DNA of 64,000 nucleotides, from contig SOIM01000036.1 of the NCBI GenBank assembly GCA_004377185.1, positions 11,890 to 75,889 on the forward strand, read 5' to 3'. Within the stretch, counting starts at the first letter, position 1. Each line of letters begins with the position of its first letter. The translations under genes and the position numbers were made by a program. The notes beneath the pieces were generated by a model. It made no database searches. It had not been told where the DNA came from and worked only from the letters and a program-made list of their open reading frames with translations. This stretch comes from Methanomassiliicoccales archaeon. GTDB taxonomy: Archaea; Thermoplasmatota; Thermoplasmata; RBG-16-68-12; SOIM01. This document shows, in pieces, positions 13,099-48,596 of this stretch.

Positions 13099-13713
13099 GT
13101 GAGAACCGAGACGCCTTCGATATCACAGAGAATAGAGAAAGATGCTGCGGTTCTTAGTGGATATGAACATCTGAAGGGGTGGCTGTACTCGGTCGCTGTG
13201 ATTGCCTGCTTTTCCGTATTTGTGGCGCTTTCCAAAGGTTATCTCAGAGTGCCGTTACACATTCCTGGCCACAGTGCTATCTATGTAATCCCGCTGCTGT
13301 TAGTGGGAAGACTGGCCTCGAAGAACAGATTCGGTGGAATGGGGATAGGATGCCTTTCCGGAGGGATAATGGCATTTACCGGGATTGGTGGTGGATTCCT
13401 CTTGGCAATACCTCGCTACCTCCTGATGGGCGTCGTCATTGACCTTCTCCTCTGGAAGGAATGGACGCGGGAGAACATGACTGTCGTTGTTGTTGCAGGA
13501 GCGTTCGCGAACATCGCCAAGTTCCTAATGGGAATGGTCATCGCAACTCTTATCGGAATACCGGCGTTCTTCATACAGTTGGGAATGACGTACTCTCTCG
13601 TGACGCATCTGGCCTTTGGTGTGGCGGGCGGTCTGGTCGCGTTTGGGGCATTGAAAGCGGTCAGACATGTCCAGAAAGGCGTAACAAAGAGAAGTCAAAG
13701 GACGACTGGGTAA
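13099..13713 (+). CDS. Small polytopic membrane protein, possibly an ECF-transporter S-component.
   Basis: 204 aa, about 6 TM, Gly-rich helices. Family assignment is from memory only. Confidence 0.35.
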   Translation: MRTETPSISQRIEKDAAVLSGYEHLKGWLYSVAVIACFSVFVALSKGYLRVPLHIPGHSAIYVIPLLLVGRLASKNRFGGMGIGCLSGGIMAFTGIGGGFLLAIPRYLLMGVVIDLLLWKEWTRENMTVVVVAGAFANIAKFLMGMVIATLIGIPAFFIQLGMTYSLVTHLAFGVAGGLVAFGALKAVRHVQKGVTKRSQRTTG

Positions 13714-14423
13714 TAGGCTCCGTCCTTTTCGACCACAAAGAGTACTGGTTTTCCATCAATACGGCTCGGACGTATCCTATCGGCCATTGCCACCGAGCCT
13801 TCTGTCAGCCTTCCCCCCTCATCCAAGAGCACTGTGTCTATCCCCATCTCTCCAAGTCTTGCTGCCGAGACCGTCCCTTTCAGTTCTCTCAGCCCTTTGA
13901 GCATGACGTATCTTCCGTCGCTTCCAGATGAACAAAGCCCTATTCCAGCAAGTGCACCGATTACGCCATCGCCGCTCCCACCGATTTCCTCCAGTCTTAT
14001 GTTTCCTTCTTCAGCTACGTTTAGTGCATCTTGCTTTGTGAGAACCTCCCTTTGAGTCTTCAGACCGAAGTCCACTATGGATTCTGGAACCGTCTCCGCC
14101 ATCGCCAGTCCCGGGTCGCTTCCTTCTTGGAACCGATCCACAATGATTTCTTTGACCGCTTCGAACACGTCAAAATCTAGAGACTCGGCCGATCTGGCCA
14201 TTATGACATTGCAGCTGTTTCTTTTGGTATATCTTATAGAAGGATGTATGAACAACTGATGTCGCGTGATGCCAAGGACGTCCAAATCCAGTATTCGAGC
14301 GATTCTCCTGGCCAATCTTCCAGTTCCCTCTCCTCCCACAACATCCGTGTCGTCAATGGATATGAACAAGCGGCCTCTCATCTTGGGTGGTTGAATGAGG
14401 CGGAAGGAAATATGTTTTGCCAT
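13695..14423 (-). CDS. Short TiaS-like (DUF1743-type) domain protein.
   Basis: N-terminal LFISIDDTDVVGGEGTGRLARRIARIL recalls the TiaS N-terminal I-D-D-T-D motif. C-terminal GVIGALAGIGL recalls the TiaS G-L-I-G-A-L-A segment. At 242 aa it is far shorter than TiaS (~420 aa). Confidence 0.35.
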   Translation of the reverse strand: MAKHISFRLIQPPKMRGRLFISIDDTDVVGGEGTGRLARRIARILDLDVLGITRHQLFIHPSIRYTKRNSCNVIMARSAESLDFDVFEAVKEIIVDRFQEGSDPGLAMAETVPESIVDFGLKTQREVLTKQDALNVAEEGNIRLEEIGGSGDGVIGALAGIGLCSSGSDGRYVMLKGLRELKGTVSAARLGEMGIDTVLLDEGGRLTEGSVAMADRIRPSRIDGKPVLFVVEKDGAYYPVVL

Positions 14424-17342: not shown

Positions 17343-19109
17343 ATGGCAAGAAACAGGAACAAGGTTGTAGTCACGATAATAGCCGCTTTGATGGCACTCT
17401 CGTATCTACCGCTCGTTTCGTCCGCTGGGTCCACAGGCCATATCTGGCTGGACTGTGACCCGGGGGAGAAGGCTCGAGGGATAGGTGGATGGCCCGCTGG
17501 GGGCATAATCTGTCCAGCGGACTATGAACCGAACCTCGTATACACCTTCACCATAATCGTGGAGAACCGCGGCAAGGAGCCTCTTATGGACCTGAGGTTG
17601 GCCATGGCAATTCACGGACCGGATCCACCACCGCCTGAGACCACTTCGGACGACTTCGTGAGCATTCAGATTGAGAGTTCTATCCACTATCTCGGCGACT
17701 TCGGCTCGACCGAGTACAACCCGTTCGATGAGTCCTTCGGTGGAAGACACCACGTTTATGTTGGAACGGATGCAATCTGGGACATCTACCACCATGCACC
17801 CAATGTGATTCCGGCAAAGAGCGTGGCATATCTGACAGCGACCGTCACACTGGGACGGGCTCCGAGTGATGACTTCGAGATACATTTCGACGCATTCGAC
17901 ACCATAACGGAGTACAAGTCACCCAACGGGCACGACATCACCTTCATATCTGGCGCTAGGATTCCCGTAGACAAGGAACCGCCAGTAGCCTGTATAGTGG
18001 GCGGAGATGAGATCACCGTCTACGAGGGCGATGAGGTGACCTTCGATGGCTCCTGCTCCTACGATCCAGATGGATGGATTGTCAGCTATGAGTGGGACTT
18101 CGACGCCAATGTCGACTCGGACGGGGACGGAAACTCTGAGAACGATGTGGATGCCACTGGCATGATTGTGACCTTCACCTGGTACGACGACTATGAGGTC
18201 GACGTGAGCCTGACCGTGACCGATAATGACGGCCTGCAGGATACTGCATACCAGCACGTGTTCGTTCTGAACGTTCCACCGGAACTTGAGTTCGAGGGTG
18301 CGTTCATAGAGTTCGAGCTGAGCCTGAGGCTTACGGGTGAGAAATGGCACAACGTTGAGCTAAAGGTGTACAAGAACTACGATCCTGAGACTGGTGACTT
18401 CGAAGAGGAGCTGGGTGCACTGGAAGTCGAGAGATGGCCTGGACCTCCAGACCAGAACCCGAGCAGTGGCACATCACTCCTGGTAAGCGTGGACATCAGT
18501 GGGCAGGACACCTACACAGCTGTGGTCACCTACGATCCTTTCGAGGACAATGGTGACGCGATACTCGGCGACCAGCCGATCAACGGACAGCTGTGGGGAG
18601 CAAACCCTGTCCAGCTCGTAGCCACCTTCCCTGACGGGACGGAGTGCAGGAAGCACCACACCTTCAACGTGCAGCAGTCGATCAAGAGGGACAGCGACCA
18701 TTGGAACCATGTAGAACCCTGGATCGTTAACCTGACCGTTGGTGCCGTGGCAGGAGTTCCGATAAAGTTCGTGGCGACCGCAACAGATCCTGGTAGTGAT
18801 GACCTCACTTTCGACTGGGACTGGGGCGACGGAAACTGGACGTCCAATTTGTACCTGTACGACCCGATTAGGGGACCCGACCCGGCATTCCCGCCAGGCA
18901 GCCCCTACGAGCCGCTAGGTGCACCTTGGGACCCATGGTACACGAACTACACCGGACAGCTTCCGCCAATAGTGATCACGGACATAGTCTACCATACGTA
19001 CGGTGCTGAAGGGACATACACTATCACCCTGACCGTAACGGATGACGACGGTGGAACAGCAACCTACAGCTTCGAGCTAGAGATTAGCGGTCACTTCGGT
19101 GGCTGCTAG
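17343..19109 (+). CDS. Secreted PKD-domain protein.
   Basis: Signal peptide. PKD signatures VTFDGSCSYDPDGWIVSYEWDFD and TFDWDWGDGNWTS, plus YTITLTVTDDDGG. Confidence 0.65.
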   Translation: MARNRNKVVVTIIAALMALSYLPLVSSAGSTGHIWLDCDPGEKARGIGGWPAGGIICPADYEPNLVYTFTIIVENRGKEPLMDLRLAMAIHGPDPPPPETTSDDFVSIQIESSIHYLGDFGSTEYNPFDESFGGRHHVYVGTDAIWDIYHHAPNVIPAKSVAYLTATVTLGRAPSDDFEIHFDAFDTITEYKSPNGHDITFISGARIPVDKEPPVACIVGGDEITVYEGDEVTFDGSCSYDPDGWIVSYEWDFDANVDSDGDGNSENDVDATGMIVTFTWYDDYEVDVSLTVTDNDGLQDTAYQHVFVLNVPPELEFEGAFIEFELSLRLTGEKWHNVELKVYKNYDPETGDFEEELGALEVERWPGPPDQNPSSGTSLLVSVDISGQDTYTAVVTYDPFEDNGDAILGDQPINGQLWGANPVQLVATFPDGTECRKHHTFNVQQSIKRDSDHWNHVEPWIVNLTVGAVAGVPIKFVATATDPGSDDLTFDWDWGDGNWTSNLYLYDPIRGPDPAFPPGSPYEPLGAPWDPWYTNYTGQLPPIVITDIVYHTYGAEGTYTITLTVTDDDGGTATYSFELEISGHFGGC

Positions 19110-19822: not shown

Positions 19823-21943
19823 GTGGTGTATGGCTTGAGGAAGTTTCGGATCTTATTGGCCCTACTGCTCATTCTTCCATTCCTATACGTTGCCCCGCCC
19901 GTTGAAGCGCAGGAGGTAATAGGAGTCAATCTGATCGTCAACAACTTCCTGAATAACTCAACAGCAAAGGCTCTGTCTTGGCTCGTGTTTGACGGTAACC
20001 CTCCCCCTCCAAGTCAAGTGGATGATGTCATTTTCAATTGGACAGACCCTCAAGGCGTTCTTGCACACACAGATTGGGTCGCCCCGGACGCAAAAGCCGT
20101 GGCGTGGAGCTACTATCAAGTCGACCAGCTCGGTGAATGGACTGTGAACGTGTCCTATGTAGGAAACACCTCTATCTGGAACAACAAGAGCTTCGAGATT
20201 GTAGTGGATCACTGGGGGCCAGGTACGTACATCGTCTCTAGAACAACCCTCGTGTCTGTTGATGCGACACTAACGATTGAACCCGGAACTATAGTCGCCT
20301 TTGACCAGGACAAGGGTCTGGGAATCGAGGGTAAATTAGTGGCCCAGGGCAATGACACTGACCCAGTTGTCTTCACCTCCAACCTCACGACCAAGTCACC
20401 GGGGGATTGGAGCTCTATCACGTTCTACAACAGTAGCGACAACCAGTCAGTGTTTGACTATGTCAGAATCGAATACTCGCGTAAGGGTCTCAACCTGAAA
20501 GGGGCATCGCTACCCATAACCAATTCCACGTTCATCAACAATCTGGAGAGGGCGATCTATAACGAATTCTCTTTCAGCCTAATCATGGGGAACAACATCA
20601 ACAGGGGGGAGCCTGGAATCTCGCCAGTAGGGATATATTCTGGTGTCTCAAATGTTACTATCGAAGCAAACCTCATACAGAACATGAGCACTGGACTTTA
20701 CTTCTCCTACTCAAATCTGACAATGAGAGACAATCTGGTGGTGAACTGTGATCCGCACGGAATGTTCGTAAGGGGCACAATCCTGAACTCAACGAACGAC
20801 AGGTTCTACGAGAACAGAAATGGGGTGGAAATGGATTCTGGATCCAACACTACGTTCGAAGGACTCATTGTGGTCGGGAGGATGGACGGGTTCTCCGTCT
20901 TTGAAGGTTCAAGGGCGGTTCTGTGGAACTCCTCGGTGGAACTCGTACAAATAACCACCTTCGAGCTGGACGGTGGTTCCTACGTCATTCTGGTCAACTG
21001 CAGCTTCTCGAGGATTGATACCAGTCCAGGTGTCTCCATACCTCCAGATGACGATTCGGTCTTGATGATCAAGAACTTCCTCACTGTGGAGGTCCTCTCT
21101 TACGACAACGGAACACATCTGGCAAATGCGACCGTGGAGGTGTATGACATGGGCAACCAGGTGTTTCAGGTTGAGACAGATGCTAGCGGGTTCACCCAGC
21201 CTCTTGTAGTGACGGATCGAACCTATATGCCCACCTTGATAGAGAACTCTACGATCGTTCATGTGAGATATGCCGATCTGTCTTTTGAGAACAACAACCG
21301 CTCGGTGGACATGAGTTCAGGACACATCGAGGTCTTCAGAGGAAGCATCTATGACTTGGACGGGGACGGAGAGCCAGATTTCAGTGACGGTGACATGGAC
21401 GGAGATGATTTGCCCAACGCCCTCGAGGATGGCATTGGAACCAATCCCAGAAACCCAGATACAGACGGTGATGGCATTCCTGACGGGTATGAGTTCCATT
21501 CCGAAATTCTCAATCCTTTGAACGGCCTGGATGCGGCTCAGGACTATGATCAGGACGGTCTCACAAACCTCGAGGAGTATCAGAACGGAACCTATCCCGG
21601 TCGGGCTGACAGCGATGGGGACGGAGTGGATGATCTGGTTGAGATGGGATGTGGATTGAACCCCCTCAATGCCACCGATGCAGCCGGGGATTGGGACAAT
21701 GACGGTTTCAGCAATGGGGAGGAGTGTAAGGCTGGGACTGATTTGAATAACCCGGAAGACAAGCCTCCACCTGCGTTGGATTGGTTGCTCGTTACTCTGA
21801 TTGTCGCTATTGTGATTATTTTGGTCTTGATTGTTGCTCTTGTGGTACGAGGGAGGCGTGGTGAATCCCCGGCGGAAGAGGAGGAGCCCTCCGAAGAAGA
21901 TGAGGAAGAAATCGCTGAGGAATCCTCAGAAGAGACTGACTGA
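19823..21943 (+). CDS. Exported beta-helix protein with thrombospondin-type-3-like Ca-binding repeats, C-terminal TM anchor and acidic tail.
   Basis: Signal peptide. Parallel beta-helix repeats. D-x-D-G-D repeats (DLDGDGEPDFSDGDMDGDD...DTDGDGIPDGYE...DSDGDGVDD...DWDNDGFSNGEE). TM LLVTLIVAIVIILVLIVALVV followed by RGRRG and a poly-E tail. Confidence 0.65.
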   Translation: MVYGLRKFRILLALLLILPFLYVAPPVEAQEVIGVNLIVNNFLNNSTAKALSWLVFDGNPPPPSQVDDVIFNWTDPQGVLAHTDWVAPDAKAVAWSYYQVDQLGEWTVNVSYVGNTSIWNNKSFEIVVDHWGPGTYIVSRTTLVSVDATLTIEPGTIVAFDQDKGLGIEGKLVAQGNDTDPVVFTSNLTTKSPGDWSSITFYNSSDNQSVFDYVRIEYSRKGLNLKGASLPITNSTFINNLERAIYNEFSFSLIMGNNINRGEPGISPVGIYSGVSNVTIEANLIQNMSTGLYFSYSNLTMRDNLVVNCDPHGMFVRGTILNSTNDRFYENRNGVEMDSGSNTTFEGLIVVGRMDGFSVFEGSRAVLWNSSVELVQITTFELDGGSYVILVNCSFSRIDTSPGVSIPPDDDSVLMIKNFLTVEVLSYDNGTHLANATVEVYDMGNQVFQVETDASGFTQPLVVTDRTYMPTLIENSTIVHVRYADLSFENNNRSVDMSSGHIEVFRGSIYDLDGDGEPDFSDGDMDGDDLPNALEDGIGTNPRNPDTDGDGIPDGYEFHSEILNPLNGLDAAQDYDQDGLTNLEEYQNGTYPGRADSDGDGVDDLVEMGCGLNPLNATDAAGDWDNDGFSNGEECKAGTDLNNPEDKPPPALDWLLVTLIVAIVIILVLIVALVVRGRRGESPAEEEEPSEEDEEEIAEESSEETD

Positions 21944-22634: not shown

Positions 22635-25487
22635 CTAATTCGTAACTGTCCAATCGAAATCTTCCGAGACGTGTATCCAGTATCCGTTCCCGAACTGCAT
22701 GATGTCCGAGCCAGCAAGCCTCTTGAGATACCACGGTGGGTCTCCAGGGTCGTAACCTTCTACCTTCTGGTATATGGCCCCATCGAAGGAATCGCTCACG
22801 GTGCGGTCAAAAAAGGATGCATAGCCGATGAAGTTCCACCCCACAACGAGGCGAATAGTGGTGCTCAGAGGAACAAGACCAGCGACCGTGAGATAGCATT
22901 CTTGGGATACTTCTACCCATAGGGCCATCTTCTCATTAACGTTCTTCAGGGAGTTGTATGGTTTTCGAGTGTCAAATGTCCTCCAGTTGTGCCTTTTCCC
23001 AGCCATCGCATCGTAGTATAGGATTCTCTTGTAGCTGGCTGTTTGGAACACCTCTTGGATGCTGGTGTCCGACATAATCACCGGTATCGAAATCAACTGC
23101 ATTCCAGATGGCATATGCCTAGCAAACTTCACAGCCTGCTGCCCAAAGGTCTTCTGTCCGATTTCGTCCACAGCCTTCACTATGTAGAAGTAGGTGTTGT
23201 TATCGCCATGGCCTCCGTCTGAATGGATGTATGAGGTGGTTCCGGCCGGAACGGTTTGCAGAAGAGCATAGCCAGCGCCGTTCCTGTCATATGTTGTCCC
23301 GTAGTATATCTCATACGCCACTACGTCATCCTCGACTCCCCCATCATCAGGCGATAGTGACCAGGAAATCACAACGTCGGCCAGACCACTTCCTGATAGA
23401 ACGGCGTCCCGGATCTCAGCCTCACCAGGGGTCTCATCTCTTATGATTGCGTAAGTTGTAGCAGTATCTGTCAGGTTGTCGTCATCCGTGACAGTAAGGG
23501 TAATTGTGAAATTCCCACCGGATGAATAGACGTGGCTCACCCACCAGCCGTGCGCTTTTGGAGAACCATCCCCGAAATCCCATTCCAGATCAACTATCGT
23601 GCCATCAAGGTCATGGGACCCGTTTCCTGTGATGTCTACCGGGAAGTTCTTCCTACCCGAGTAAGGGCCATCTGGGTCTGAGATCGGTGGAACCAGCTCA
23701 GGAAGTACCATAATGAGAGCGGTATCGCTGTCCGTCAGATTGTCATCATCTGTTACCAAGAGTGTTGCCGTGTAGTTTCCTATACTGCTGTAGGTGTGAT
23801 TGACAATTTCACCGTGCTTAGTCGGAGAGCCATCCCCGAAGTCCCATGTCCAATCCACAATGACTCCATCTGGATCAGTGGAACCTGACCCATCGAAGAC
23901 GACCAGATCGTTGACATGCACTACTTGATCAGGTCCAGCATCCGCCACTGGAGGATATCCCACAACGTAAACCGTCACGTAGTCTTTGTCAGTCAGATTG
24001 TCGTTGTCGGTCACCGTCAGAGTCACAGTATACTGGCCTATTGCAGAGTAGGCGTGAGACACATTTTCGCCCCAGTCCTCATCTCCGTCACCAAAGAGCC
24101 AGTGGTAGGAGACAATCCATCCATCAGGATCATAGGAATTGCTTCCGTTAAACCACGCGGACTGACCTTTATCCACGCTTTGACTTGTTGGTAAAGCAAT
24201 CGCAACGGGGTTGTTGTCTCTAACGTTGACTGTAACGTAGTCCTTGTCAGTCATGCTTGAGTTATCTGTCACAATGAGGGTAACTGTGTAATTGCCTGAC
24301 GCAGAATATGCGTGCGTGACATACTCTCCCCAGTCCTCATCTCCGTCACCGAAGAGCCAATGATAGGAGACGATCGATCCATCCGGGTCGTATGAATCGC
24401 TTCCATTGAACCATGCGGATTGGCCGACATTTACCGTCTGGTTGTCGGGTCTGGCAATCGCGACAGGGGGCTGACCTTGGGGTCCTAGACTTGGGCAGCC
24501 CACTACGGGGTCGATGAATGGATAGTTGTCCTGATTCTTGGGTAGGATGTAGTAAGGTGTGTCGCCAATTCCGTCACCATCGCCATCAGTGCCATTGTAG
24601 TCACCCCAGTAGTTCCCCGCAGAACCATTGTCCCATGATGTCCAATCTCGATTATCCCAGGCGTTGTCCGTGTGGTTATAGATGTTGTTATGATGTACGT
24701 AGAGATCGGCGTCATAGAGACTGATTCCATACTCATCATTATCACTGAAAAGATTGCATGCGATTTCCCATCCTGAGGCGCCGTACGCCCGGATCCCGCC
24801 ATTCCGGTTTCCAAAGAATTCGCTGTTGTAAAGTTTGCTATATCCCGACATCGCAGCGTCTATGTAAATCCCATGGTCCACGTTGCCTGTTATCGTAGAA
24901 TCGACGATTGTGTTGTCTGAGGAGGATTTTCCAAAATACATCCCACTGGTTCTGCTTCTACTGACTGAAACGCTTTCGAAGGTATTGTTCGAAGAGTATA
25001 CAATTATCCCCTGAAAAATCTGTGAGAAACTCGTGTAGGAAAAACTGTTCCAGTCAGAGCGTATTCGCACGTCTTCCGCATAGTTGATATAGGCCCACGA
25101 TACATCGGCCCTGCCCACGCTCATGATTGTTAGGTTGCCCCAACTCCCCGGGAACGGCGTGGTAAGATTTGAAGTCAGTCTTACTCTGTCAAGCTTCTCA
25201 CCAAGAATCCTTAGATAGCCATAAACGAACAGAGAACGGAAGTTTTCAAAGCGAACAGAGACACCCTTTTCTATAGTGAGCGTCACATTGTAGTCCACGT
25301 ATACGTCACCAACAACTATGTAGGGACTGCCTGACTGGTTCCAGATAGTGTCAGTCTTTATGTGTCCTCCGACTATCGTCCACGCCCCGACGTTCGGACT
25401 CAGGGTAACGCTTACGCTCAAGAATCCTGCCCACACCATCAGGAGAACTACTGCTACGGAGCCTCCCTTTCTGCCCACTTTGGACAT
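22635..25487 (-). CDS. Large exported protein: N-terminal right-handed beta-helix, at least four PKD domains (two near-identical in tandem), and a C-terminal domain.
   Basis: Signal peptide. PKD signatures WFNGSDSYDPDGSIVSYHWLFGDGDEDWGEY and WFNGSNSYDPDGWIVSYHWLFGDGDEDWGEN, then VVFDGSGSTDPDGVIVDWTWDFGDGSP and DLEWDFGDGSP. Confidence 0.7.
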   Translation of the reverse strand: MSKVGRKGGSVAVVLLMVWAGFLSVSVTLSPNVGAWTIVGGHIKTDTIWNQSGSPYIVVGDVYVDYNVTLTIEKGVSVRFENFRSLFVYGYLRILGEKLDRVRLTSNLTTPFPGSWGNLTIMSVGRADVSWAYINYAEDVRIRSDWNSFSYTSFSQIFQGIIVYSSNNTFESVSVSRSRTSGMYFGKSSSDNTIVDSTITGNVDHGIYIDAAMSGYSKLYNSEFFGNRNGGIRAYGASGWEIACNLFSDNDEYGISLYDADLYVHHNNIYNHTDNAWDNRDWTSWDNGSAGNYWGDYNGTDGDGDGIGDTPYYILPKNQDNYPFIDPVVGCPSLGPQGQPPVAIARPDNQTVNVGQSAWFNGSDSYDPDGSIVSYHWLFGDGDEDWGEYVTHAYSASGNYTVTLIVTDNSSMTDKDYVTVNVRDNNPVAIALPTSQSVDKGQSAWFNGSNSYDPDGWIVSYHWLFGDGDEDWGENVSHAYSAIGQYTVTLTVTDNDNLTDKDYVTVYVVGYPPVADAGPDQVVHVNDLVVFDGSGSTDPDGVIVDWTWDFGDGSPTKHGEIVNHTYSSIGNYTATLLVTDDDNLTDSDTALIMVLPELVPPISDPDGPYSGRKNFPVDITGNGSHDLDGTIVDLEWDFGDGSPKAHGWWVSHVYSSGGNFTITLTVTDDDNLTDTATTYAIIRDETPGEAEIRDAVLSGSGLADVVISWSLSPDDGGVEDDVVAYEIYYGTTYDRNGAGYALLQTVPAGTTSYIHSDGGHGDNNTYFYIVKAVDEIGQKTFGQQAVKFARHMPSGMQLISIPVIMSDTSIQEVFQTASYKRILYYDAMAGKRHNWRTFDTRKPYNSLKNVNEKMALWVEVSQECYLTVAGLVPLSTTIRLVVGWNFIGYASFFDRTVSDSFDGAIYQKVEGYDPGDPPWYLKRLAGSDIMQFGNGYWIHVSEDFDWTVTN

Positions 25488-25566
25488 CTCTACTCCACCG
25501 TTCTCAAAATACTCTCGTTGCTATAAGATGATATTTGTTCTATGTTCTATTTGCTTTTAAGCATCC

Positions 25567-28167
25567 CTAGGACTCTTTCTTTGAGTCCGTGATATAGTGT
25601 CTGAGGGTCATCCCGTGCTTTTCTGTTCTCAGTCTTTGCGACTTCTTCAGTTTGTTGATATGATAGCTCACTGTTGGTTGGCTCATTCCCAGGTGAGCGG
25701 CAATCTCCTTCTGAGATATCCCCGGACTCTCTCTCACCAGCTCCAAAATCATTATCTCAATCTTGGTTGGAAATGCCCTCTCCGGGACTCTCATCCCAAT
25801 CGGGAAGAATCTTCGATATTTGCCGTCCTTGATGGATTTGACCATGTCCTCTCTCTCCAGAACGTTGAGATGGTGAGCAAGCGTTCCGTTTCTCAGGTCC
25901 AGTGCCGCTTTGATGGAGTTGAAGTGATCGCCTGGGTTCGCAATTATGTATCCTCTTATCATACCTCTCGTTTCGTGGTCCAGAACATCTCTTCTTCTCA
26001 ATCTGGAATATAGCGGCAGGAAAAAGAGGAGAATAGAGTACTTCGCCGATTCTCTGCTGAAGGCCCCAGCGAATGAAAGGATGCAAGCCAGAAGAATCCC
26101 AGCCACCACCAATAAGAAGGGAAACTCTCCAGACGGAACGACTATCTGGCAGACCGCGTTTCGTGCGTACTCCCTTATGAAGTCCCCGTTGCTGTCCGTG
26201 TAGTTGAGAAAGGCCCAGACTTCTATCTGTTCGGATTCCTGCAGATCGCCTTCGAAGCTCAAGAATATCTCAAATTCGTAATAGCCTGGCCCAACATCAG
26301 AAAAGAGATATTTGAGATTTCCAACGGCAGTTCCTCCTATCGTTGCGGACGTATCGCTCAAGTATCTTAAGGAGGAAGGTATTGAGAGATTCAGCCAGGC
26401 ACTCTGCGATGGCACTGACCCGGTGTTGTTCAGGAAAACGGTAAAGACTAGCGTTTCATCACTCTCAAATGTCCTTTTGCTGCTCGCTATCTGTGAAGAC
26501 AGTATCGGGGAATGAATGGTAATGGTTATCTTGTCCGTGGCTGTTGGCAAGCCCTCTCCGCGTTCGTTGGTGTGATCAAGCTGCAGATCTATGTCCAGTG
26601 TCTGCATATCAGTGGTACCAGAGCTAATTCGTGTGACTATCCTGAACGATCGGTCTCCCTGAGGGACATTCGTGAACTCCCACCGGTAGTTGCCAGTCTT
26701 CACTCCTCCCGCGTCCGTTGCATTGTCCGAGATGTATTCAATCTCCCCTGGGAAGGTGACATTGAGCCAAGTGGCAAGAGAGGGAAGCGGGGAGGTGTTA
26801 CGAATCAGTATGTCGAATTCAAAGACATCATTTGGCGTTGAGGTGGCCACTCTGCTCCCCACGATTAGCTCAAGGAAGACTTGCTCAATCACGGTCGACG
26901 CATTTGAAGACAGATTGCCCAGAGGCACTCCCACAGAGTTGGTGTAATTCAGAGATGCACGATTGGTCAGAATGGACCCTCCCTGAGCAGAGGCGTTGAT
27001 TCTGGCCTGAATATGGAATTGACGCTCACCTGGAACAAGGTCATCCAGCGTCCAAGAGCATGTGTTGCTGATGATAGAATCGCAGTCTGGAGAGGATGAG
27101 AAGTATGTTGTGTCAATAGGAAGAGTGTCGCTTATCCAGACCGTTCTTGCTACACCCAGGCCTGTGTTGTTGATTATCAAAGAATAGTCTAGCAGATCTC
27201 CGACTGAGGCAAGACCCTTGTCAACCATCTTCTGAAATGTGATATTCGGTATGACGACCATTGTGGTATTTGTGGCAAATTCATCCTGAAACAAGATGCC
27301 CTTAGTATTCCTGTAAGACAGAAACAGATCGTTGATTATCAGCGTGCCATCCGAGAGACCGGACATAGCTTGGACTTTGAGCTCGAAAGAGAGTGAACCC
27401 GTGACATCGGAGAAGCTCCAGTTGTACGGCCCGGTCTTTTTCCCGCCAATCGAAGAAGTTGTGTCGTTGATATAGATTAGGGATGGGGGTAAGAAGTCAT
27501 CAATCAATACTTCAGAAGCATTTGCGCTCCCAACGTTCTGGAAGGAGATTGTGTAATTGAAGACCTGTCCAGGGGAAATCTTGTAAGCTTCTGCAGTCTT
27601 TGACAGTAGCATCACTGGTCTATGGGCCGTAACGGAAGCGAAAGCATCTGGTGGGGGTGTCATAGGTTGGCCAAGGTGGTTCAAATAGTCAAGGTGAGCC
27701 GAAAAAGTCATTAGCTCCCCATCCAAAGCGCTGTCCAGTACGTTGAATTCGATTATGAAACTGTGGTTGGTAACGTTCATGTTTGGAAATGTCCAATTGA
27801 AATCCCCCGTTTTGATGCCAAGCTCAATAAATGAATCATCCCAAACGTAATTTAGTTGAAGAGGGACGGAGACGTTGATCCAAACAGAAGAAGCATTGTT
27901 CGTACCTGTATTGTTGAAGAAGACCGTGAGTATCAAAGTGTCACCGGGCTCCACATCTGCAGCGCTCACCGCCACATCCAAGCTCATCGAAGGATTTGCC
28001 CTTGCATTGGGAACCATGAACTGGCCCAACGATGTCAGAAGGAATACTATTGCGAACAGAAGTCTTCCGAGATTGATGGATTTGAACTTCTTCTCTTTCT
28101 TGTGGAGTGTCATCTGCCCACCTATTCGCGAATCAAATCCGAGATGCCCCTCGCCGTGTAAAAGCAT
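25567..28167 (-). CDS. Membrane-anchored putative one-component regulator: signal peptide, ~650-aa extracellular DUF11/CARDB-like repeat domain, single TM helix, two cytoplasmic winged-helix (ArsR/MarR-like) DNA-binding domains.
   Basis: N-terminal LGRLLFAIVFLLTSLGQFMVPNARA. Repeated beta-sandwich modules. TM FPFLLVVAGILLACILSFAGAF. C-terminal segments ETRGMIRGYIIANPGDHFNSIKAALDLRNGTLAHHLNVLERED and KIEIMILELVRESPGISQKEIAAHLGMSQPTVSYHINKL are classical wHTH recognition helices. Confidence 0.65.
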   Translation of the reverse strand: MLLHGEGHLGFDSRIGGQMTLHKKEKKFKSINLGRLLFAIVFLLTSLGQFMVPNARANPSMSLDVAVSAADVEPGDTLILTVFFNNTGTNNASSVWINVSVPLQLNYVWDDSFIELGIKTGDFNWTFPNMNVTNHSFIIEFNVLDSALDGELMTFSAHLDYLNHLGQPMTPPPDAFASVTAHRPVMLLSKTAEAYKISPGQVFNYTISFQNVGSANASEVLIDDFLPPSLIYINDTTSSIGGKKTGPYNWSFSDVTGSLSFELKVQAMSGLSDGTLIINDLFLSYRNTKGILFQDEFATNTTMVVIPNITFQKMVDKGLASVGDLLDYSLIINNTGLGVARTVWISDTLPIDTTYFSSSPDCDSIISNTCSWTLDDLVPGERQFHIQARINASAQGGSILTNRASLNYTNSVGVPLGNLSSNASTVIEQVFLELIVGSRVATSTPNDVFEFDILIRNTSPLPSLATWLNVTFPGEIEYISDNATDAGGVKTGNYRWEFTNVPQGDRSFRIVTRISSGTTDMQTLDIDLQLDHTNERGEGLPTATDKITITIHSPILSSQIASSKRTFESDETLVFTVFLNNTGSVPSQSAWLNLSIPSSLRYLSDTSATIGGTAVGNLKYLFSDVGPGYYEFEIFLSFEGDLQESEQIEVWAFLNYTDSNGDFIREYARNAVCQIVVPSGEFPFLLVVAGILLACILSFAGAFSRESAKYSILLFFLPLYSRLRRRDVLDHETRGMIRGYIIANPGDHFNSIKAALDLRNGTLAHHLNVLEREDMVKSIKDGKYRRFFPIGMRVPERAFPTKIEIMILELVRESPGISQKEIAAHLGMSQPTVSYHINKLKKSQRLRTEKHGMTLRHYITDSKKES

Positions 28168-28214
28168 CTCCCTAGAGCATATTTAAAGATGGTTGTTCAA
28201 TCTTCTATGTACCT

Positions 28215-30227: not shown

Positions 30228-30785
30228 TCATTCAAAAGTCCTGAAGGCGTTCTTTTTCGCCTTGCATAGCGGACATTCGTCCGGCGCTTCTCCTTCTACA
30301 GTCCAACCGCAAATCTCACATATCTGGACCGGCCCGAGGTCGACATCATTTCCGCCATCAACGACTTCCTTGGCCTTCGTATACAACTCCTGATGTATCT
30401 TCTCGGCCTCGAGAGCCCAGTTGAAGCTTCTGACGGCTCCTTTCTCATCCTGTTCCTCCGCCACCTTCAGGTAGGACGGATACATCTCCTCGATCTCGAA
30501 GGTCTCACCCTCGATTGCGACCGCCAGGTTGTCTGATGTGCTCTTGAAACCAAATCCGCCTCCAGCGACCGTAAGTCCGCCTTCCACCTCCCTCAGAACC
30601 CGGAAATGGCTCTTGGCATGCATATGCTCAGCGTATGCTATCGCCCTGAACAGTCTCGCCACGTTCGGAAAGCCTTCCTTCTCGGCCTTCTCGGCATATA
30701 TGTCGTATCTGTTCCTGGCCTGACTCTCGCCGGCAAAAGCGCTCTTCAAATTCATCTCTGTCATTGCTCTCATGTCTATCCCCAC
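30228..30785 (-). CDS. rbr: Rubrerythrin (diiron ferritin-like domain + C-terminal rubredoxin-like CxxC...CxxC).
   Basis: E..EHMHA and E..H diiron ligands. C-terminal CEICG...CPLC. Confidence 0.85.
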   Translation of the reverse strand: MGIDMRAMTEMNLKSAFAGESQARNRYDIYAEKAEKEGFPNVARLFRAIAYAEHMHAKSHFRVLREVEGGLTVAGGGFGFKSTSDNLAVAIEGETFEIEEMYPSYLKVAEEQDEKGAVRSFNWALEAEKIHQELYTKAKEVVDGGNDVDLGPVQICEICGWTVEGEAPDECPLCKAKKNAFRTFE

Positions 30786-30920
30786 CTTTTCTTTTCGTAA
30801 TTACGATTCTTTTCCTTCCCACTGCGAATAACACTAATATTTGTTGTCCTTTTCCTGATGCCAATCGAAACAAGCAATAACCAAAAGGGTATTAGGGGGA
30901 AAAGCAGAGGAGGATTTGGT

Positions 30921-32588
30921 ATGGAACACGATAGATATTCCGTCCTAATAGGCGGAGAAGCTGGTCAGGGAACCCGAATGAGCGGAATATTGTTTTCCCA
31001 GATCATGAACAGGGTGGGGAGATATGTCTTTGAGATGGACGATTATCCGTCCTTGATCCGAGGGGGACACAACTTCTCGGTGATCACCTCGTGCGAATCT
31101 CCGATTTACAGCCACTATGACGACCTGGACGTATTCGTCTGCCTGGACGAAAGAAGTTACGATCTTCACATAAAGAAGGTGAAGGAGGATGGAACTCTCA
31201 TTTACAATTCAGAGGCGATCAAAGAGGATGTCAAGGGAATCGGCCTGCCTGTCTACACCTGGGTGAAGGAAGAGGGCAACAGGCCTATCATGGCTGGTAC
31301 GGTAGGAGTCGCGGCCGCGTGTGCCTTGGGAGGAGTGGATTTTGCGGTACTGGAGGATTCATTGAGGAAAGCTTATCCAAAGGTCGCGGAACCGAACGTG
31401 TCGATGGCCAAGAGGACATACGATGCGCTTGCAGATCACATCGGGAAGTACCCCATCAAGATGAAGGATGAGAAGATCGGGGCAATCATGACCGGCAATG
31501 AGGCGATTTCTCTTGGTGCTGTCGCCGGTGGAATGAACGTTTACATCGCTTATCCAATGACACCTGCATCCTCTGTTCTTCACTATCTCGCTGCGAATGC
31601 CGATAGGTTGGGGATAGCTGTCTGCCACCCTGAGAACGAGATCGCCGTGATGAACATGGCATTGGGATGCGCGTACGCAGGTGCCAAGACCATGGTGGGT
31701 TCCAGCGGCGGAGGCTTTGCCCTCATGCAGGAGGCTTTCAGCCTTTGTGGACAATCCGAAATACCAGTCCTTTGTTATCTGGGTACGAGACCCGGCCCAT
31801 CCACTGGGGTGCCAACCTACACATCTCAGGGCGATCTGAACTTCGCCATCTATCAAGGCCACGGAGAGTTCTCGAGGATAGTACTCTCACCTTCTGGGAA
31901 CAATCAGGCTTTCTACAAGACGGCCGAGCTGATGAACCTCCTTTGGAGGTACCAAGTCCCTGGGATATTGCTCACAGAGAAGCACCTGGCTGAGGGCACG
32001 ATGACTACGAACGTGGATGTCGATTCGGTCAAGGAGGAAGAACCGGCAATGTTCGATGGAAAACCCGAGGACTACGAAAGGTACGCGGATACCGAGTCTG
32101 GCATATCACCAATGCTCTTCCCACCCGTCGAGAACGCGGTGATAAAGGCCTCGAGCTATGAACATGATCCAAAAGGCTACACTACCGAGCACCCTGCGGT
32201 CATAGTCCCGTCACTCGAAAAGAGGGAGAGAAAGCGCAAGGCGATCGAAGAAGGATTGAGACAGCTCACAACCGTTGAAACGCACGGGGATGGAAAGGTC
32301 GCACTCGTGACATACGGCTCAACAACTCTTTCTGTGATGGAGGCCGCGAAACATCTGGACAATGTGAGGGTCGTTCAGGTGATCTATCTGGAACCATTCC
32401 CGATCTGGGCCGTGGAGAAGGCATTGGAAGGAGCGGAGAAGGTAATCACCATAGAGTTGAGCATCAGCGGTCAGTTCACCACACTTCTGAAGCACAATGG
32501 GATCGTCGCGGACGCTTCGGTCACGAAGTATGATGGGAGGCCCTTCGACCCGATTGATCTGGCCAACAGGATAAAGGAGGTGATGTGA
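30921..32588 (+). CDS. 2-oxoacid:ferredoxin oxidoreductase alpha subunit (fused gamma/alpha type, KorA-like).
   Basis: Long ORF 30858..32588. The likely start is ATG 30921 (MEHDRYSV), 8 nt downstream of GGAGG. Typical LIGGEAGQG N-terminus and pyruvate-flavodoxin-oxidoreductase-like core. The stop overlaps the beta-subunit start (ATGTGATGG). Confidence 0.8.
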   Translation: MEHDRYSVLIGGEAGQGTRMSGILFSQIMNRVGRYVFEMDDYPSLIRGGHNFSVITSCESPIYSHYDDLDVFVCLDERSYDLHIKKVKEDGTLIYNSEAIKEDVKGIGLPVYTWVKEEGNRPIMAGTVGVAAACALGGVDFAVLEDSLRKAYPKVAEPNVSMAKRTYDALADHIGKYPIKMKDEKIGAIMTGNEAISLGAVAGGMNVYIAYPMTPASSVLHYLAANADRLGIAVCHPENEIAVMNMALGCAYAGAKTMVGSSGGGFALMQEAFSLCGQSEIPVLCYLGTRPGPSTGVPTYTSQGDLNFAIYQGHGEFSRIVLSPSGNNQAFYKTAELMNLLWRYQVPGILLTEKHLAEGTMTTNVDVDSVKEEEPAMFDGKPEDYERYADTESGISPMLFPPVENAVIKASSYEHDPKGYTTEHPAVIVPSLEKRERKRKAIEEGLRQLTTVETHGDGKVALVTYGSTTLSVMEAAKHLDNVRVVQVIYLEPFPIWAVEKALEGAEKVITIELSISGQFTTLLKHNGIVADASVTKYDGRPFDPIDLANRIKEVM

Positions 32589-33424
32589 TGGACTTGGACA
32601 CTCCCATGGAAAACACCTGGTGCCCTGGATGCGGTGACTTCGGACTTCTGAACGCATTCAAGAGGGCCGTTAGGGAACTGGTCGACGAAGGGTTCTGCAA
32701 GAAGGAGGACCTTGTTGTCTCTTCAGGTATTGGATGCCACGGAAAGACCGTGGATTACCTCCACCTGAACAGCTTCTACTCCATTCACGGCAGGGCGATA
32801 ACAACGATTTCAGGAATGAAGTTGGCAAATCCGAATCTGCATGTGATTGCGTTCCAAGGGGACGGAGATGCCCTTGCCGAGGGCATAGGTCACATTGTAC
32901 ATGTGGCCAAGAGGAACATCAACATCACAATGATCGTTTACAACAATGAGGTCTATTCTCTCACGACAGGTCAGTTCACACCCACGAGCAAGAAAGGGTT
33001 CAAAGGAAAGAGCACCCCCAAGGGGAACGTTGAGGAGCCCCTGAGCCCAGCCATGCTGGTATTGGCCTCCGGTGGGACTTTTGTCGCAAGGGGTTTCGTG
33101 GGCAAGATCGATCATTTGAAAGGCATTTTCAAGGAAGCGATAAAGCACGAGGGGTTCTCCTTCGTGGAAGTAATGCAGCCATGCGTGACGTTCCTCAACA
33201 CTTTCAAACTCTGGAGAGAGATGACCTACATCTTGGAGGATCATGATCCTTCGGATTTTGATGCGGCATGGGAAAAGGCTAAGGAAACGGAGAAGCTTCC
33301 GATAGGCATACTCTATCAAACAAAGGCCCCAACATACGAGAAAGAACTTCTGGGATCGTTGATACCCGCCCAACAGAAGAAGGCCCCTTCGGAGGAGATC
33401 AAGGCGATTTTTGCGGAGAGGTAG
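32585..33424 (+). CDS. 2-oxoacid:ferredoxin oxidoreductase beta subunit (TPP-binding).
   Basis: WCPGCGDFG and GDGD...G TPP-binding motifs; 279 aa. Confidence 0.85.
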   Translation: MMDLDTPMENTWCPGCGDFGLLNAFKRAVRELVDEGFCKKEDLVVSSGIGCHGKTVDYLHLNSFYSIHGRAITTISGMKLANPNLHVIAFQGDGDALAEGIGHIVHVAKRNINITMIVYNNEVYSLTTGQFTPTSKKGFKGKSTPKGNVEEPLSPAMLVLASGGTFVARGFVGKIDHLKGIFKEAIKHEGFSFVEVMQPCVTFLNTFKLWREMTYILEDHDPSDFDAAWEKAKETEKLPIGILYQTKAPTYEKELLGSLIPAQQKKAPSEEIKAIFAER

Positions 33425-35628: not shown

Positions 35629-35646
35629 AACAATAGGAGATAGAAT

Positions 35647-36285
35647 ATGACCGTACTGTTCGGGACACTGGGATGGAGACCTCAGAGCCTCACACCATCG
35701 ATAAGAACCACACCCAACATAGAGAGTCTGTACTTCTACCACAGCGAACACAAGAAAAGTATCGAGGCAAAGGACAGGGTGGTCGAATACTGCAACGGCA
35801 TTGGTCTCCCGGTAGTCCCCATTCAACTGTCCGATGCGTTCAATCTCGTTGAGATTGCCAAGAAGATCAAGGAGGACATAAGAAAGGTCAAATCGGAAGG
35901 GCGTTCGATAGCCCGTTTCAACATTGCTGGCGGTACCAGATTGATGAGCTCCGCGGCTCTACTCGTTTGTATACTGGAGGGGATTCCAACGATCTACGTT
36001 CATGACGAAACCTTTGAGGAGATCCAGTTGCCTTTGCTGCAGATCGAGTATTCGTCAGGGCTTACAACCAGACAGAAGGAGATACTGGACCACATGCGCA
36101 AGTCCAAGAATGAGACATTCACCCAGACCGAGCTGGCGAAGGAAATGAAGATTCATAAGGCTACGATGAACCATCACATCACCGAGCTGAGGAAGAAGGG
36201 GATGATACTGGTTTCCAAGGATGAGAATGATGAGAGGTTGAAGAACATTAGACTGGCACCTTCTGTGGACCTCCTGCTGGAGTGA
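35647..36285 (+). CDS. Csa3-like CARF-domain + winged-HTH transcription regulator.
   Basis: N-terminal strand VLFGTLGW and the CARF core signature NIAGGTRLMSSAALLVC ([DN]-x-[ST]-x-x-x-[RK] followed by a small-residue helix). C-terminal wHTH TQTELAKEMKIHKATMNHHITELRKKGMI. Same domain order as Sulfolobus Csa3, recalled from memory. AGGAGA sits 7 nt upstream of the ATG. Confidence 0.6.
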   Translation: MTVLFGTLGWRPQSLTPSIRTTPNIESLYFYHSEHKKSIEAKDRVVEYCNGIGLPVVPIQLSDAFNLVEIAKKIKEDIRKVKSEGRSIARFNIAGGTRLMSSAALLVCILEGIPTIYVHDETFEEIQLPLLQIEYSSGLTTRQKEILDHMRKSKNETFTQTELAKEMKIHKATMNHHITELRKKGMILVSKDENDERLKNIRLAPSVDLLLE

Positions 36286-36923
36286 TTCTGTTGGGAGCTC
36301 TCCGAGTTCTTCTGACTACATTTGGTTTTGATGAAGGCAAGATAATTGCCACGATGAGGATGCTGGCCTATGACAAGCTGGTTGTCATCACGGGACAGGA
36401 CTCTCTACAGAAGAAGGGCTACAACCGTCTCCTGGAGATAGAATCCAGTGCCCCGAACAGCATGGAGACAATCGTCGTAGATGTGTTCGATTTCATGGAC
36501 TGCTTCCGGAAGGTGGATGAGACAATCGCGAAATATGACCTGCCCGGGAACGAAGTGATACTGAACATCAGCGGAGGGACGAAGGTGCTCTCAGATGCGG
36601 CCTTGCTGGCAGGTTTTCAGAACGGTATCAAAACTTTCCATTGCGAAGAGGATCTGATTGAACTGCCGGTGATTATCGGCTTCAGCGTCACGGAGCGATT
36701 CACTCCGTTGCAAAGGGGATTACTTCGGGAGATGAGCGCCCCAGTGGAAGTCAAGAAGCTCGAGGCCAAGCTTACGAAGAAGGGATACCCCTTGTCGTCA
36801 GTTCAAAGGGCGGTGAGGGAACTGAAGAAGCTGGACATTCTGGGTGTGGACCTGAGCAAGAAGGGGATCCACCTGTATCTGAAGGAATCCCACCAGTATT
36901 TCCGGGAAGCTCTAGCAGGTTGA
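36282..36923 (+). CDS. Second Csa3-like CARF + wHTH regulator (paralog), GTG start overlapping the upstream stop.
   Basis: LLTTFGFDEG strand-1. LNISGGTKVLSDAALLAGF CARF signature. C-terminal helix-turn-helix LQRGLLREM...SSVQRAVRELKKLDILG. Confidence 0.55.
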   Translation: MILLGALRVLLTTFGFDEGKIIATMRMLAYDKLVVITGQDSLQKKGYNRLLEIESSAPNSMETIVVDVFDFMDCFRKVDETIAKYDLPGNEVILNISGGTKVLSDAALLAGFQNGIKTFHCEEDLIELPVIIGFSVTERFTPLQRGLLREMSAPVEVKKLEAKLTKKGYPLSSVQRAVRELKKLDILGVDLSKKGIHLYLKESHQYFREALAG

Positions 36924-48402: not shown

Positions 48403-48475
48403 TGGGCTCATGGTCTAGCGGTTATGACGTCACTCTCACACAGTGAAGGTCGCCGGTTCGATCCCGGCTGAGCCC
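48403..48475 (+). tRNA. tRNA-Val (anticodon CAC).
   Basis: Hand-folded cloverleaf. Acceptor GGGCTCA/TGAGCCC. Anticodon stem TCACT/AGTGA with loop CTCACAC. T-arm GCCGG-TTCGATC-CCGGC. Discriminator A, no encoded CCA, 73 nt. Confidence 0.85.
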
Positions 48476-48596
48476 ATACTTCTTCCCCCCTTTCGCTTGA
48501 CCACGGAGGATTCTTCGTTCATGAGTGCAGTCCGATTCTCTTCAGTGATAACCGTGAACTAACGTCTAAATAGCTACAAAGGGTCTTTTCGATGGA

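Follow-up and report, generated by a model that had tools for sequence, protein, structure and literature searches.

The 64,000-nt stretch analyzed here (the window; positions 11,890 to 75,889 of contig SOIM01000036.1, assembly GCA_004377185.1, from a Methanomassiliicoccales archaeon) carries on its minus strand, at 25567-28167, a gene for a large surface protein that ends in two winged helices. A 15-nt element in its promoter recurs upstream of related genes and is a new finding here. We lean toward the view that the protein is a membrane-tethered one-component regulator of surface-protein genes, with DNA binding predicted. This reading is based on the DNA-binding class and basic character of the tail, on the way in which its second winged helix varies among relatives, on the lack of a conserved partner gene, and on the private cis-element.

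Architecture and start codon of the window gene

The full open reading frame (ORF) occupies 25567-28167 (-), 866 codons plus stop, exactly where the sequence-only reading of this DNA had placed it. The layout proposed there, a signal sequence, a beta-sandwich ectodomain, a single transmembrane (TM) helix, and two C-terminal winged helix-turn-helix (wHTH) domains, was confirmed in all parts by Pfam, NCBIfam, hydropathy, and AlphaFold2; given the ORF length and the E-values, chance is no consideration for this architecture. Strong hydropathy is found only at residues 29-55 and 682-703. The first peak belongs to a signal peptide or signal anchor (residues 19-57, 27997-28113 (-)), which reads MTLHKKEKKFKSINLGRLLFAIVFLLTSLGQFMVPNARA/NP (the slash marks the predicted cut) and has a lysine-rich n-region and an A-x-A site. 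This N terminus resembles a typical signal peptide and may be cleaved.

The ectodomain (residues 58-681, 26125-27996 (-)) is acidic and contains 23 N-x-S/T sequons and five DUF11-type repeats. The beta-sandwich repeats were as first described, but the ectodomain measures ~620 aa in five repeats rather than about 650 aa. Pfam DUF11 (PF01345) matched four stretches at approximately residues 190-660 (E=7e-31, 107 bits versus a cut-off of 24.6), and the NCBIfam DUF11-type repeat model TIGR01451 matched 5 stretches (E=1e-31, 108 bits). The full-length AlphaFold2 model, built on a 58-sequence alignment with a mean predicted local distance difference test score (pLDDT) of 88.4, has five all-beta repeats of ~120 residues (61-181, 186-304, 309-427, 432-551, and 556-676), followed by a TM helix at 685-703, a second helix at 706-743, and two winged helices of three helices and a beta-hairpin each. 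The best structural matches to the ectodomain were hydin-like ciliary proteins, integrin alpha legs, and the MG domains of alpha2-macroglobulin.

By hydropathy and the model, the TM helix comprises residues 682-703 (FPFLLVVAGILLACILSFAGAF; 26059-26124 (-)), with a mean hydropathy of up to 2.6 and a proline, P683, that is nearly invariant across the family. The conserved juxtamembrane segment that follows (residues 704-726, SRESAKY-SILLFFLPLY-SRLRRRD; 25990-26058 (-)) consists of a short hydrophobic stretch and then a basic stretch, for which the family consensus is TExGKY-LLxLxxPLY-[ST][RK]L; the window protein has SRESAKYSILLFFLPLYSRL as its version of this TM-following TExGK...PLY[ST][RK]L motif. 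The segment and the first winged helix are joined by one uninterrupted helix.

Translation probably starts not at the first codon of the ORF but at Met19 (nt 28113), which gives a coding sequence of 25567-28113 (-) and a product of 848 aa. The usual spacing from an archaeal TATA box to the transcription start is ~26 nt. The TATA box of this gene, TTTAAATA, lies at 28180-28187 (-), at the same distance from the promoter element as in four related loci (L001, L003, L005, and L007, described below), and the ATG of Met1 (28167) is only 13-20 nt downstream of it (28187-28180). Transcription is therefore predicted to start near 28157, downstream of the Met1 ATG. A Shine-Dalgarno-like GGTGGG (28117-28122 (-)) ends 3 nt before the Met19 ATG, and Met19 is aligned with the N-terminal methionine in >90% of the full-length homologs. 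For these reasons, Met1 was dropped in favor of Met19. The orthologs L001 and L003 have the same order of TATA box, GGTGGGCA, and ATG. Antisense to the winged-helix coding region there is also a 138-codon ORF at 25597-26013 (+), with 36-39% identity in L001 and L003; this ORF almost certainly just mirrors the conserved sense frame and is no gene.

The double winged-helix tail

Winged helix 1 (residues 727-797, 25777-25989 (-)) has the recognition helix NGTLAHHLNVLERE, which is almost invariant in the family, and residues 732-797 matched HTH_HVO_0163_N (PF24266) in Pfam at 67 bits versus a cut-off of 31. Winged helix 2 (residues 802-860, 25588-25764 (-)) has the recognition helix SQPTVSYHINKL and the wing EKHGMTLRHY. 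Its residues 802-843 matched HTH_24, HTH_5 (ArsR), HTH_20, and MarR, all beyond the Pfam cut-offs (HTH_5, 45 bits with a cut-off of 22; HTH_20, 42.7 bits with a cut-off of 27), and the ArsR/SmtB subfamily model NF033788 of NCBIfam just missed its cut-off (53.2 versus 55 bits). Among solved structures, the best match to domain 1 was PDB 5duk, a 77-aa "putative DNA binding protein" (E=5e-7 with a single sequence and 2e-8 with a profile); YgaV, ArsR, SmtB, PH1061, SlyA, and MarR proteins were also matched by sequence across both domains.

The AlphaFold2 model of the C-terminal 196 residues has a pLDDT of 86.9, and its single domains superpose on CzrA, ArsR, SmtB, HlyU, and CadC (pI258) at 0.7-1.4 Å over 58-61 residues with 21-28% identity. 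Both the ArsR-type reading head (S-x-x-T-V-N/S-Y-H-x-x-x-L) and the ArsR-type wing (R-x-E-R-x-G-x-x-x-x-Y-Y) are kept in the family consensus. The C-terminal region is a confident double winged helix of the ArsR/SmtB/MarR class, so the DNA-binding fold on which the sequence-only reading depended is present, and binding of DNA by the tail is predicted from these sequence features. The recognition helices of winged helix 2 vary between paralogs of one genome and are conserved within orthologous subfamilies across genomes.

When the two-domain tail was searched as a unit, the top Foldseek matches were ESCRT-II, ScpB, RPC34, TFIIIC, and SelB. These were set aside as homologs because they superpose poorly (TM-score ~0.3, root-mean-square deviation (rmsd) 7-20 Å) and because the sequence profiles match ArsR/MarR regulators.

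Membrane topology

Topology was judged by heuristics, namely the lysine and arginine (K/R) bias of the TM flanks, the asymmetry of sequons, and the asymmetry of isoelectric point (pI) and charge. There are 6 K/R in the 30 residues after the TM helix (SRESAKYSILLFFLPLYSRLRRRD...) and 1 in the 15 residues before it. Over 58 relatives, the flank on the C-terminal side has the higher K/R count in 36 and the lower in 8, with a mean of 6.6 K/R within 40 residues after the TM helix. The 23 sequons of the ectodomain correspond to 3.7 per 100 aa, compared with 1 (0.6 per 100 aa) in the tail. Neighboring surface proteins resemble the ectodomain at 2.3-3.4 per 100 aa; the tail is similar to the non-surface proteins of the window, with 0-0.9 per 100 aa in nine of ten and 1.5 in the other. 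The window tail has a net charge of +12 and a pI of 10.1 (family median 9.7), and the ectodomains of the family are acidic, with a median pI of 4.4. All four indicators (TM flanks, K/R bias of the relatives, sequons, and pI/charge) place the tail inside the cell. By these concordant heuristics the protein is N-out/C-in with both winged helices in the cytoplasm, and not outside, a placement that would have refuted the original proposal.

Distribution and composition of the family

An exhaustive HMMER search with the C-terminal 195 residues as query retrieved 6,995 representative clusters at E<=1e-3; the number falls to 2,942 at E<=1e-10 and to 428 at E<=1e-30. Among the 150 matches listed, the match ends within ~250 residues of the C terminus, usually within 30, in proteins of 173-2185 aa. 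A hydrophobic signal at the N terminus and a single TM helix are present in most of the full-length relatives, and the motif P-[LIVMF]-[YF]-[STAV]-[RK] occurs ~35 residues past the TM start in 132 of 166 relatives. The module consensus begins with TExGKYxLLxLxxPLYTRLKxExVLDHxTRGxIxGYIxANPGDHYNSIKxALxLxNGTLAYHLxxLERExxIKSxRDGxYRRFYP and continues in its second part with PGISQKEIAxxLGxSxxTVNYH...RxERxG...YY.

In the 58 full-length relatives scanned with Pfam, both HTH domains were present without exception and all 58 matched PF24266. The ectodomains in front of them differ: PKD was found in 14 of the 58, DUF11 in 11, He_PIG in 10, FG-GAP_3 in 9, CARDB in 8, Big_9 in 7, and NPCBM_assoc in 5, and PQQ propeller, NosD beta-helix, and glucodextranase B modules in 3 each.

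A genome scan with one genome per species gave 115 confirmed loci, of which 80 were retained (the numbered loci cited here). All 80 come from Thermoplasmata, Methanomassiliicoccales, or Thermoplasmatota metagenome-assembled genomes (MAGs), and several genomes (CP070739, CP070751, CBDVCJ, and VGTL01) contain at least 4 paralogs. The search for the same architecture in related genomes that the sequence-only reading had called for was thus successful, with 428 clusters at E<1e-30; every relative with a source name or a genome location is from a Thermoplasmatota MAG. That reading had described such an arrangement as rarely characterized in archaea; the family is indeed experimentally uncharacterized, but it is not rare, as there are hundreds of clusters and annotation pipelines label them as regulators. 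The source names, all of them automatic, include "winged helix-turn-helix transcriptional regulator," "MarR family," "DUF11 domain-containing protein," and "parallel beta-helix repeat protein," and no cultured organism is among the named sources of relatives. Literature searches turned up no description of the family or of the element in its promoters.

To look for partner genes, 562 ORFs within 5 kb of the 80 loci were clustered. No conserved partner gene, protease, or co-sensor was found among them; the recurrent neighbors were lineage-syntenic housekeeping genes and other surface proteins, with a large helicase-like ORF at 20 loci and another ORF at 16, both unannotated. The absence of a conserved partner gene fits a self-contained one-component system.

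At 76 of the 80 loci, the module closes a long ORF of 430-2744 aa. At L061 (2265-6180), L063 (3677-7046), and L076 (7977-8534), the tail module is in a short stop-to-stop ORF, and at the first two a long ORF in another frame stops just inside the tail ORF and bears the promoter element. The L061 arrangement suggests a frameshift, and those of L063 and L076 may be similar; the short ORFs are probably frameshifts or assembly errors and possibly split genes. Soluble paralogs of 175-194 aa are encoded at L074 (941-1465 (-)) and L077 (946-1527 (-)); they consist of the two winged helices alone, have a 5duk-like sequence, and are each encoded immediately after an ORF that contains hydrophobic stretches.

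A promoter element shared by the family

The element in front of the window gene, TAGAAGATTGAACAA (28193-28207 (-)), lies 5 nt upstream of the TATA box. An alignment of the upstream regions of the window, L001, L003, L005, and L007 showed a shared TAGAA[GA]AnnGAACAA, then 5 nt, then TTTAAATA. With at most one mismatch, this pattern has exactly two copies in the window, at 28193-28207 and 25535-25549. The second copy, TAGAACATAGAACAA (25535-25549 (-)), is in the 79-nt gap between the stop codon of the target gene and the gene downstream (22635-25487 (-)), whose 950-aa product is a secreted or surface protein that combines four PKD domains with a NosD-like beta-helix; this copy is followed by a TATA-like CTTATAGC and a GGTGGA ribosome-binding site. 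L002 shows the same arrangement, with the element in front of the family gene and again in front of the PKD/beta-helix gene that follows it directly.

A matrix was refined iteratively over 67 family upstream regions and gave the consensus T[CA]GA[AG]nAn[CT]GnAC[CA]A (in short, T[CA]GAAnAnYGnAC[CA]A). The window site reaches 17.5 bits under this family matrix and 22.5 bits under the subfamily one. At a threshold of >=13 bits with a TATA box required, the element was found in 33 of the 67 family promoters compared with 4 of 640 control ORF regions drawn from those loci, and in ten two-fold splits by genome it was recovered in 40% of held-out family promoters versus 0.64% of held-out controls. 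Four positions (A4, A12, C13, and A15) are invariant in all 33 sites, and an A/T-rich octamer lies 3 nt downstream of the element in 25 of them; outside the element and the TATA box the sequence is unconserved, with no conservation past the TATA box. The element occurs in 28 of 45 genomes and before several paralogs in one genome (JAGLME: L001, L007, and L029). The upstream regions of the soluble paralogs L074 and L077 are without it.

Seven top-scoring control genes were examined with Pfam. Five encode surface proteins that adjoin family genes (PKD, FG-GAP, beta-helix, or PQQ propeller), another weakly matches carboxypeptidase-regulatory-like and SdrD B-like domains, and one has no match. A search for DNA motifs upstream of neighboring surface-protein genes, suggested from the sequence at the outset, was therefore positive, both in the enrichment of the element and in its presence at adjacent surface genes. 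The family matrix also matched twice within the coding region of the PKD/beta-helix gene, at 22954-22968 (-) and 24989-25003 (+), with 16.8 and 17.0 bits. These matches are probably due to chance, because ~1 such match is expected per 128 kb, although, notably, both lie within the partner gene.

The TFB recognition element (BRE) of archaeal promoters is only ~6-7 nt long, so the 15-nt element extends too far upstream to be a BRE alone; its position is that of archaeal activator and operator sites. The spacing of ~8-9 bp, about one helical turn, between the invariant A4 and A12/C13/A15 would suit two reading heads per chain.

Proposed mechanism and alternative explanations

In the mechanism that we propose, the signal peptide of a type-I membrane protein would be followed by a glycosylated stalk of five DUF11 repeats outside the cell, and the juxtamembrane helix would lead, with hardly any linker, to a cytoplasmic pair of dissimilar winged helices of the ArsR/MarR type. 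The basic tail would most likely bind the bipartite 15-bp element, the candidate targets being its own promoter and, probably, that of the PKD/beta-helix gene downstream. The state of the ectodomain, as set by a surface, polymer, or cell contact or by assembly, would modulate how strongly surface proteins are expressed. The products of the target genes are secreted, so their co-translational insertion would bring these loci to the membrane, where the tail would sit. The tail as the binder, the effect of the ectodomain on its activity, and the sign of regulation are candidate steps in this scheme. A broader version, which we put forward tentatively and consider rather doubtful, is an expanded, self-referential outside-in system: dozens of adhesin- or integrin-like receptors (FG-GAP, PKD, DUF11, and beta-helix), each joined by a rigid juxtamembrane helix to a single-chain pseudo-dimer of two different winged helices. 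This tail would read a bipartite operator beside BRE/TATA in the promoters of the receptors themselves and of neighboring surface-protein genes, so that surface contact would reprogram the surface proteome directly from the membrane, aided by the co-translational insertion of the gene products. If true, this would be the first large modular family of DNA-binding adhesion receptors with a defined cis-code in archaea.

Several observations weigh against a membrane-tethered regulator. A separate soluble factor could bind the element, and tandem winged helices are known in proteins that are not transcription factors (ScpB, ESCRT-II, RPC34, and SelB). The reading helix of winged helix 1 is nearly invariant over paralogs and species, which speaks against paralog-specific regulons and is compatible with a conserved protein partner. 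In the models there is almost no linker between the membrane and winged helix 1, so that the tail would have to contact DNA directly on the membrane. Some half of the scanned family promoters have no scoring element, and the second copy in the window scores 19.9 bits with the subfamily matrix but <10 bits with the family-wide matrix. No clean covariation of recognition helices with half-sites was found: TPPTVNYH is paired with GTAC, TCAC, TTAC, and GAAC. The sole hint is that the sequence NGAL in winged helix 1 goes with a lost G at element position 3 (6 of 6 versus 1 of 27 otherwise); as it is limited to 1-3 clades, we give it no weight. Finally, the ectodomain is a generic beta-sandwich stalk without a recognizable ligand pocket or classic sensor domain. 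The ligand recognition that had been suggested from the sequence is more likely to be contact with a surface or polymer, if the protein senses at all, because the stalk modules are generic and are swapped for adhesin-like modules in relatives.

Some of these points would be expected of a structural surface protein or adhesin in which the TM helix and tail form an anchoring or sorting device and the element is read by another envelope-gene factor, an explanation that we regard as unlikely. The tail would then bind DNA non-specifically, as a tether between nucleoid and envelope, or would bind a conserved cytoplasmic protein. One conserved tail behind many swapped adhesin-like ectodomains is the pattern of an anchoring module, and the element also precedes tail-less surface-protein genes, as it would in a general envelope regulon; the near invariance of the first recognition helix and the missing helix/half-site covariation fit as well, and the tandem winged helices of ScpB and ESCRT-II do bind proteins. 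However, both of those are only generic two-domain superpositions (TM-score ~0.3, rmsd >7 Å), whereas both window domains keep ArsR/SmtB reading-head and wing signatures and match DNA-binding regulators by sequence. A strongly conserved two-domain tail of 160 aa would be costly for a mere anchor, and recognition helices in winged helix 2 that differ between paralogs yet persist in orthologous subfamilies are what one would expect of specificity determinants. If the tail binds no DNA, the family would still be an undescribed and widespread anchoring module for archaeal surface proteins. It is very unlikely, in our view, that the element is instead an extended core-promoter signature (an alternative TFB/BRE class) or reflects shared ancestry of duplicated promoters. 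The element does adjoin the BRE/TATA region with constant spacing, many of the family genes are duplicates of one another, and related genomes do not supply independent loci. Against this, the flanks are unconserved while four positions never change, the element is common to paralogs with different ectodomains that are ~20-55% identical (full length) to the window protein, and the element is found in only 0.6% of the control promoters of these genomes; moreover, it reaches ~18-20 nt upstream of the TATA box, beyond the known reach of a BRE.

A further possibility, to which we assign a low probability, is a latent transcription factor: an event at the ectodomain would trigger regulated proteolysis in or near the TM or juxtamembrane region, and the freed tail would diffuse to the element. 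SREBP, Notch, and anti-sigma factors are precedents for regulated proteolysis. The near absence of a linker would make DNA binding from the membrane sterically awkward, and the nearly invariant P683 at the TM start and the TExGK and PLY motifs could be processing or helix-breaking sites, although a rigid coupling element would account for the juxtamembrane helix just as well. Judging by the soluble tandem winged-helix proteins (L074 941-1465, L077 946-1527, and PDB 5duk), the tail fold can work unanchored. Within 5 kb of the 80 loci no protease family was overrepresented, though an unlinked general protease could still act, and ToxR, CadC, and ArnR are reported to be able to act from the membrane (PMC10269533). 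Under proteolytic release, the protein would still be a transcription factor.

Relation to known systems

As a kind, transmembrane transcription regulators (TTRs) are already known, since they have been cataloged in bacteria and archaea by Demey et al. in 2023 (PMC10269533) and ArnR and ArnR1 of Sulfolobus acidocaldarius, archaeal membrane-bound one-component factors that control the archaellum and type IV pili, have been characterized (PMC6396743). The main text of the TTR census counts 1,384 archaeal examples in 367 species, ~4 per genome, with single-pass forms the commonest, and treats TTRs as an operational class rather than a homologous family (PMC10269533). The likeness of the window protein to this class consists in a predicted DNA-binding domain and a TM segment in one polypeptide, with the cytoplasmic side assigned by heuristics. 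The same main text makes no mention of MarR, of HTH_ domain names, or of Thermoplasmatota, and no description was found in it of a type-I architecture with C-terminal tandem ArsR-type winged helices and a modular adhesin-like ectodomain, or of a cognate promoter element (PMC10269533). What is described here is a large, lineage-specific, modular type-I form with a candidate operator.

Homology of ArnR, which belongs to a different lineage (Thermoproteota), to the window protein was not detected. ArnR has an N-terminal HTH and C-terminal TM helices without a large ectodomain. CadC has a long flexible cytoplasmic linker, and the window protein has almost none. The sequence-only reading had compared the topology with that of ToxR and CadC, and the proteins are alike in being single-pass, one-component, and free of a phosphorelay, with an extracytoplasmic domain joined to a winged helix (PMC5430869, PMC10269533). 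The comparison fails for the topology itself, which is a mirror image: ToxR and CadC have an N-terminal cytoplasmic DNA-binding domain of the OmpR/PhoB type and a C-terminal periplasmic sensor, whereas here the orientation is N-out/C-in, with C-terminal DNA-binding domains of the ArsR/MarR and not the OmpR type. No Trans_reg_C match was present among the best 25 of 38 Pfam families. Because of the inverted orientation and the ArsR/MarR-type domains, the protein is not a member of the ToxR/CadC family.

To repressors of the ArsR/SmtB and MarR families (CzrA, SmtB, ArsR, and HlyU; PDB 1r1u, 1smt, 6j05, and 4k2e), the likeness lies in the single-domain fold, with CzrA and SmtB superposing at 0.7-2 Å, in the S-x-x-x-V-S-x-H-L reading helix, and in the wing. 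These repressors form soluble homodimers through alpha1/alpha5 and have sites for a metal or ligand, whereas the window protein is membrane anchored and has two non-identical domains in tandem. No Cys/His metal-site motif is visible in its sequence, and ISQKEIAAHLGM has no Cys-containing alpha3 motif. HVO_0163 has been described as an ArsR-type regulator induced by hypochlorite (PMC10294847). Proteins of the HVO_0163 type (PF24266, 5duk, L074, and L077) share winged helix 1 (PF24266) with the window protein; L074 and L077, from the same phylum, have both domains but are without the signal peptide, ectodomain, TM helix, and juxtamembrane motif, all of which are present in the window protein. 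The window protein derives from this HVO_0163/5duk type of soluble tandem-HTH protein (PF24266).

RsgI of Clostridium thermocellum offers a functional analogy. Its paralogs share a cytoplasmic signaling domain and a single TM helix, carry swapped extracellular carbohydrate- or surface-binding modules, and are each tied to a dedicated promoter class that includes their own operon. RsgI is bacterial and non-homologous, and it sequesters the sigma factor SigI rather than binding DNA.

To our knowledge, little is known of archaeal sensing, and few membrane-bound transcription factors (such as ArnR) have been studied, none of them in Thermoplasmatota, which include gut methanogens (Methanomassiliicoccales) and abundant sediment and marine lineages. 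The 15-nt candidate operator turns the vague label of wHTH transcriptional regulator into a directly testable circuit. If the proposed regulator is real, it would show how Thermoplasmatota archaea regulate their surface proteome, it would be a single-chain, two-headed winged-helix reader at the membrane, and its ectodomain and DNA-binding parts would have been shuffled by evolution like a kit.

Genomic neighborhood

The island of large surface proteins that had been noticed around the gene is real and includes PKD, beta-helix, DUF835, and sequon-rich neighbors. Besides the PKD/beta-helix gene, it contains a PKD-domain protein at 17343-19109, a sequon-rich protein at 19823-21943, and, at 14430-17021 (-), an 863-aa protein whose ectodomain is a NosD-like beta-helix and whose C terminus matches DUF835 (E=1e-25). 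A phmmer search of the six-frame ORFs of the window found no second family member, and a profile search gave one weak, HTH-only match, at 35644-36282, to a Csa3-like CARF-HTH protein.

The housekeeping genes that flank the island are 52-82% identical in the Thermoplasmata MAG RS_5_45 and in the Methanomassiliicoccales CSMAG_371 and CSMAG_404. By sequence, the orthologs of the target are L001 and L003, with 52-54% identity over the full length, and in both an ortholog of the PKD/beta-helix gene (70% identity) also lies behind the target ortholog; the gene pair is therefore conserved. By position, the orthologs are L005 (3959-5860) and L007 (7962-9884), which share with the window a flank of TPR and pyruvate:ferredoxin oxidoreductase genes and encode a ~620-aa paralog with 37% identity, without the PKD gene. 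The gene pair of the window matches a pair sited elsewhere in genome RS_5_45 (L001), which suggests that cassettes were exchanged between paralogous loci with the tail and the promoter element in common.

The beta-helix/DUF835 protein (14430-17021) has an ortholog in L005 with 50% identity; it is a second large surface protein of the island that ends in a conserved domain of unknown function, and possibly another outside-in device. The 242-aa protein encoded beside it (13695-14423 (-)) has a borderline match to the TiaS TCKD domain (28 bits versus a cut-off of 27), and in L005 its counterpart (63% identity) likewise adjoins the DUF835 protein. Housekeeping genes around the island encode an RtcB tRNA ligase (9500-10975 (-)), a rubrerythrin (30228-30785 (-)), and a 2-oxoacid:ferredoxin oxidoreductase pair (30858-33424 (+)); the island is accordingly embedded in the core genome, with no obvious mobile element. 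Further along, two adjacent and overlapping Csa3-like genes, a pair conserved in L007, encode a protein with CARF (Cas_APE2256) and a MarR-type HTH (35647-36285 (+)) and one with HFX_2341_N, Csa3_N, and CARF (36282-36923 (+)). The sole RNA gene identified in the window by ARAGORN and Rfam is a tRNA-Val (CAC) at 48403-48477 (+).

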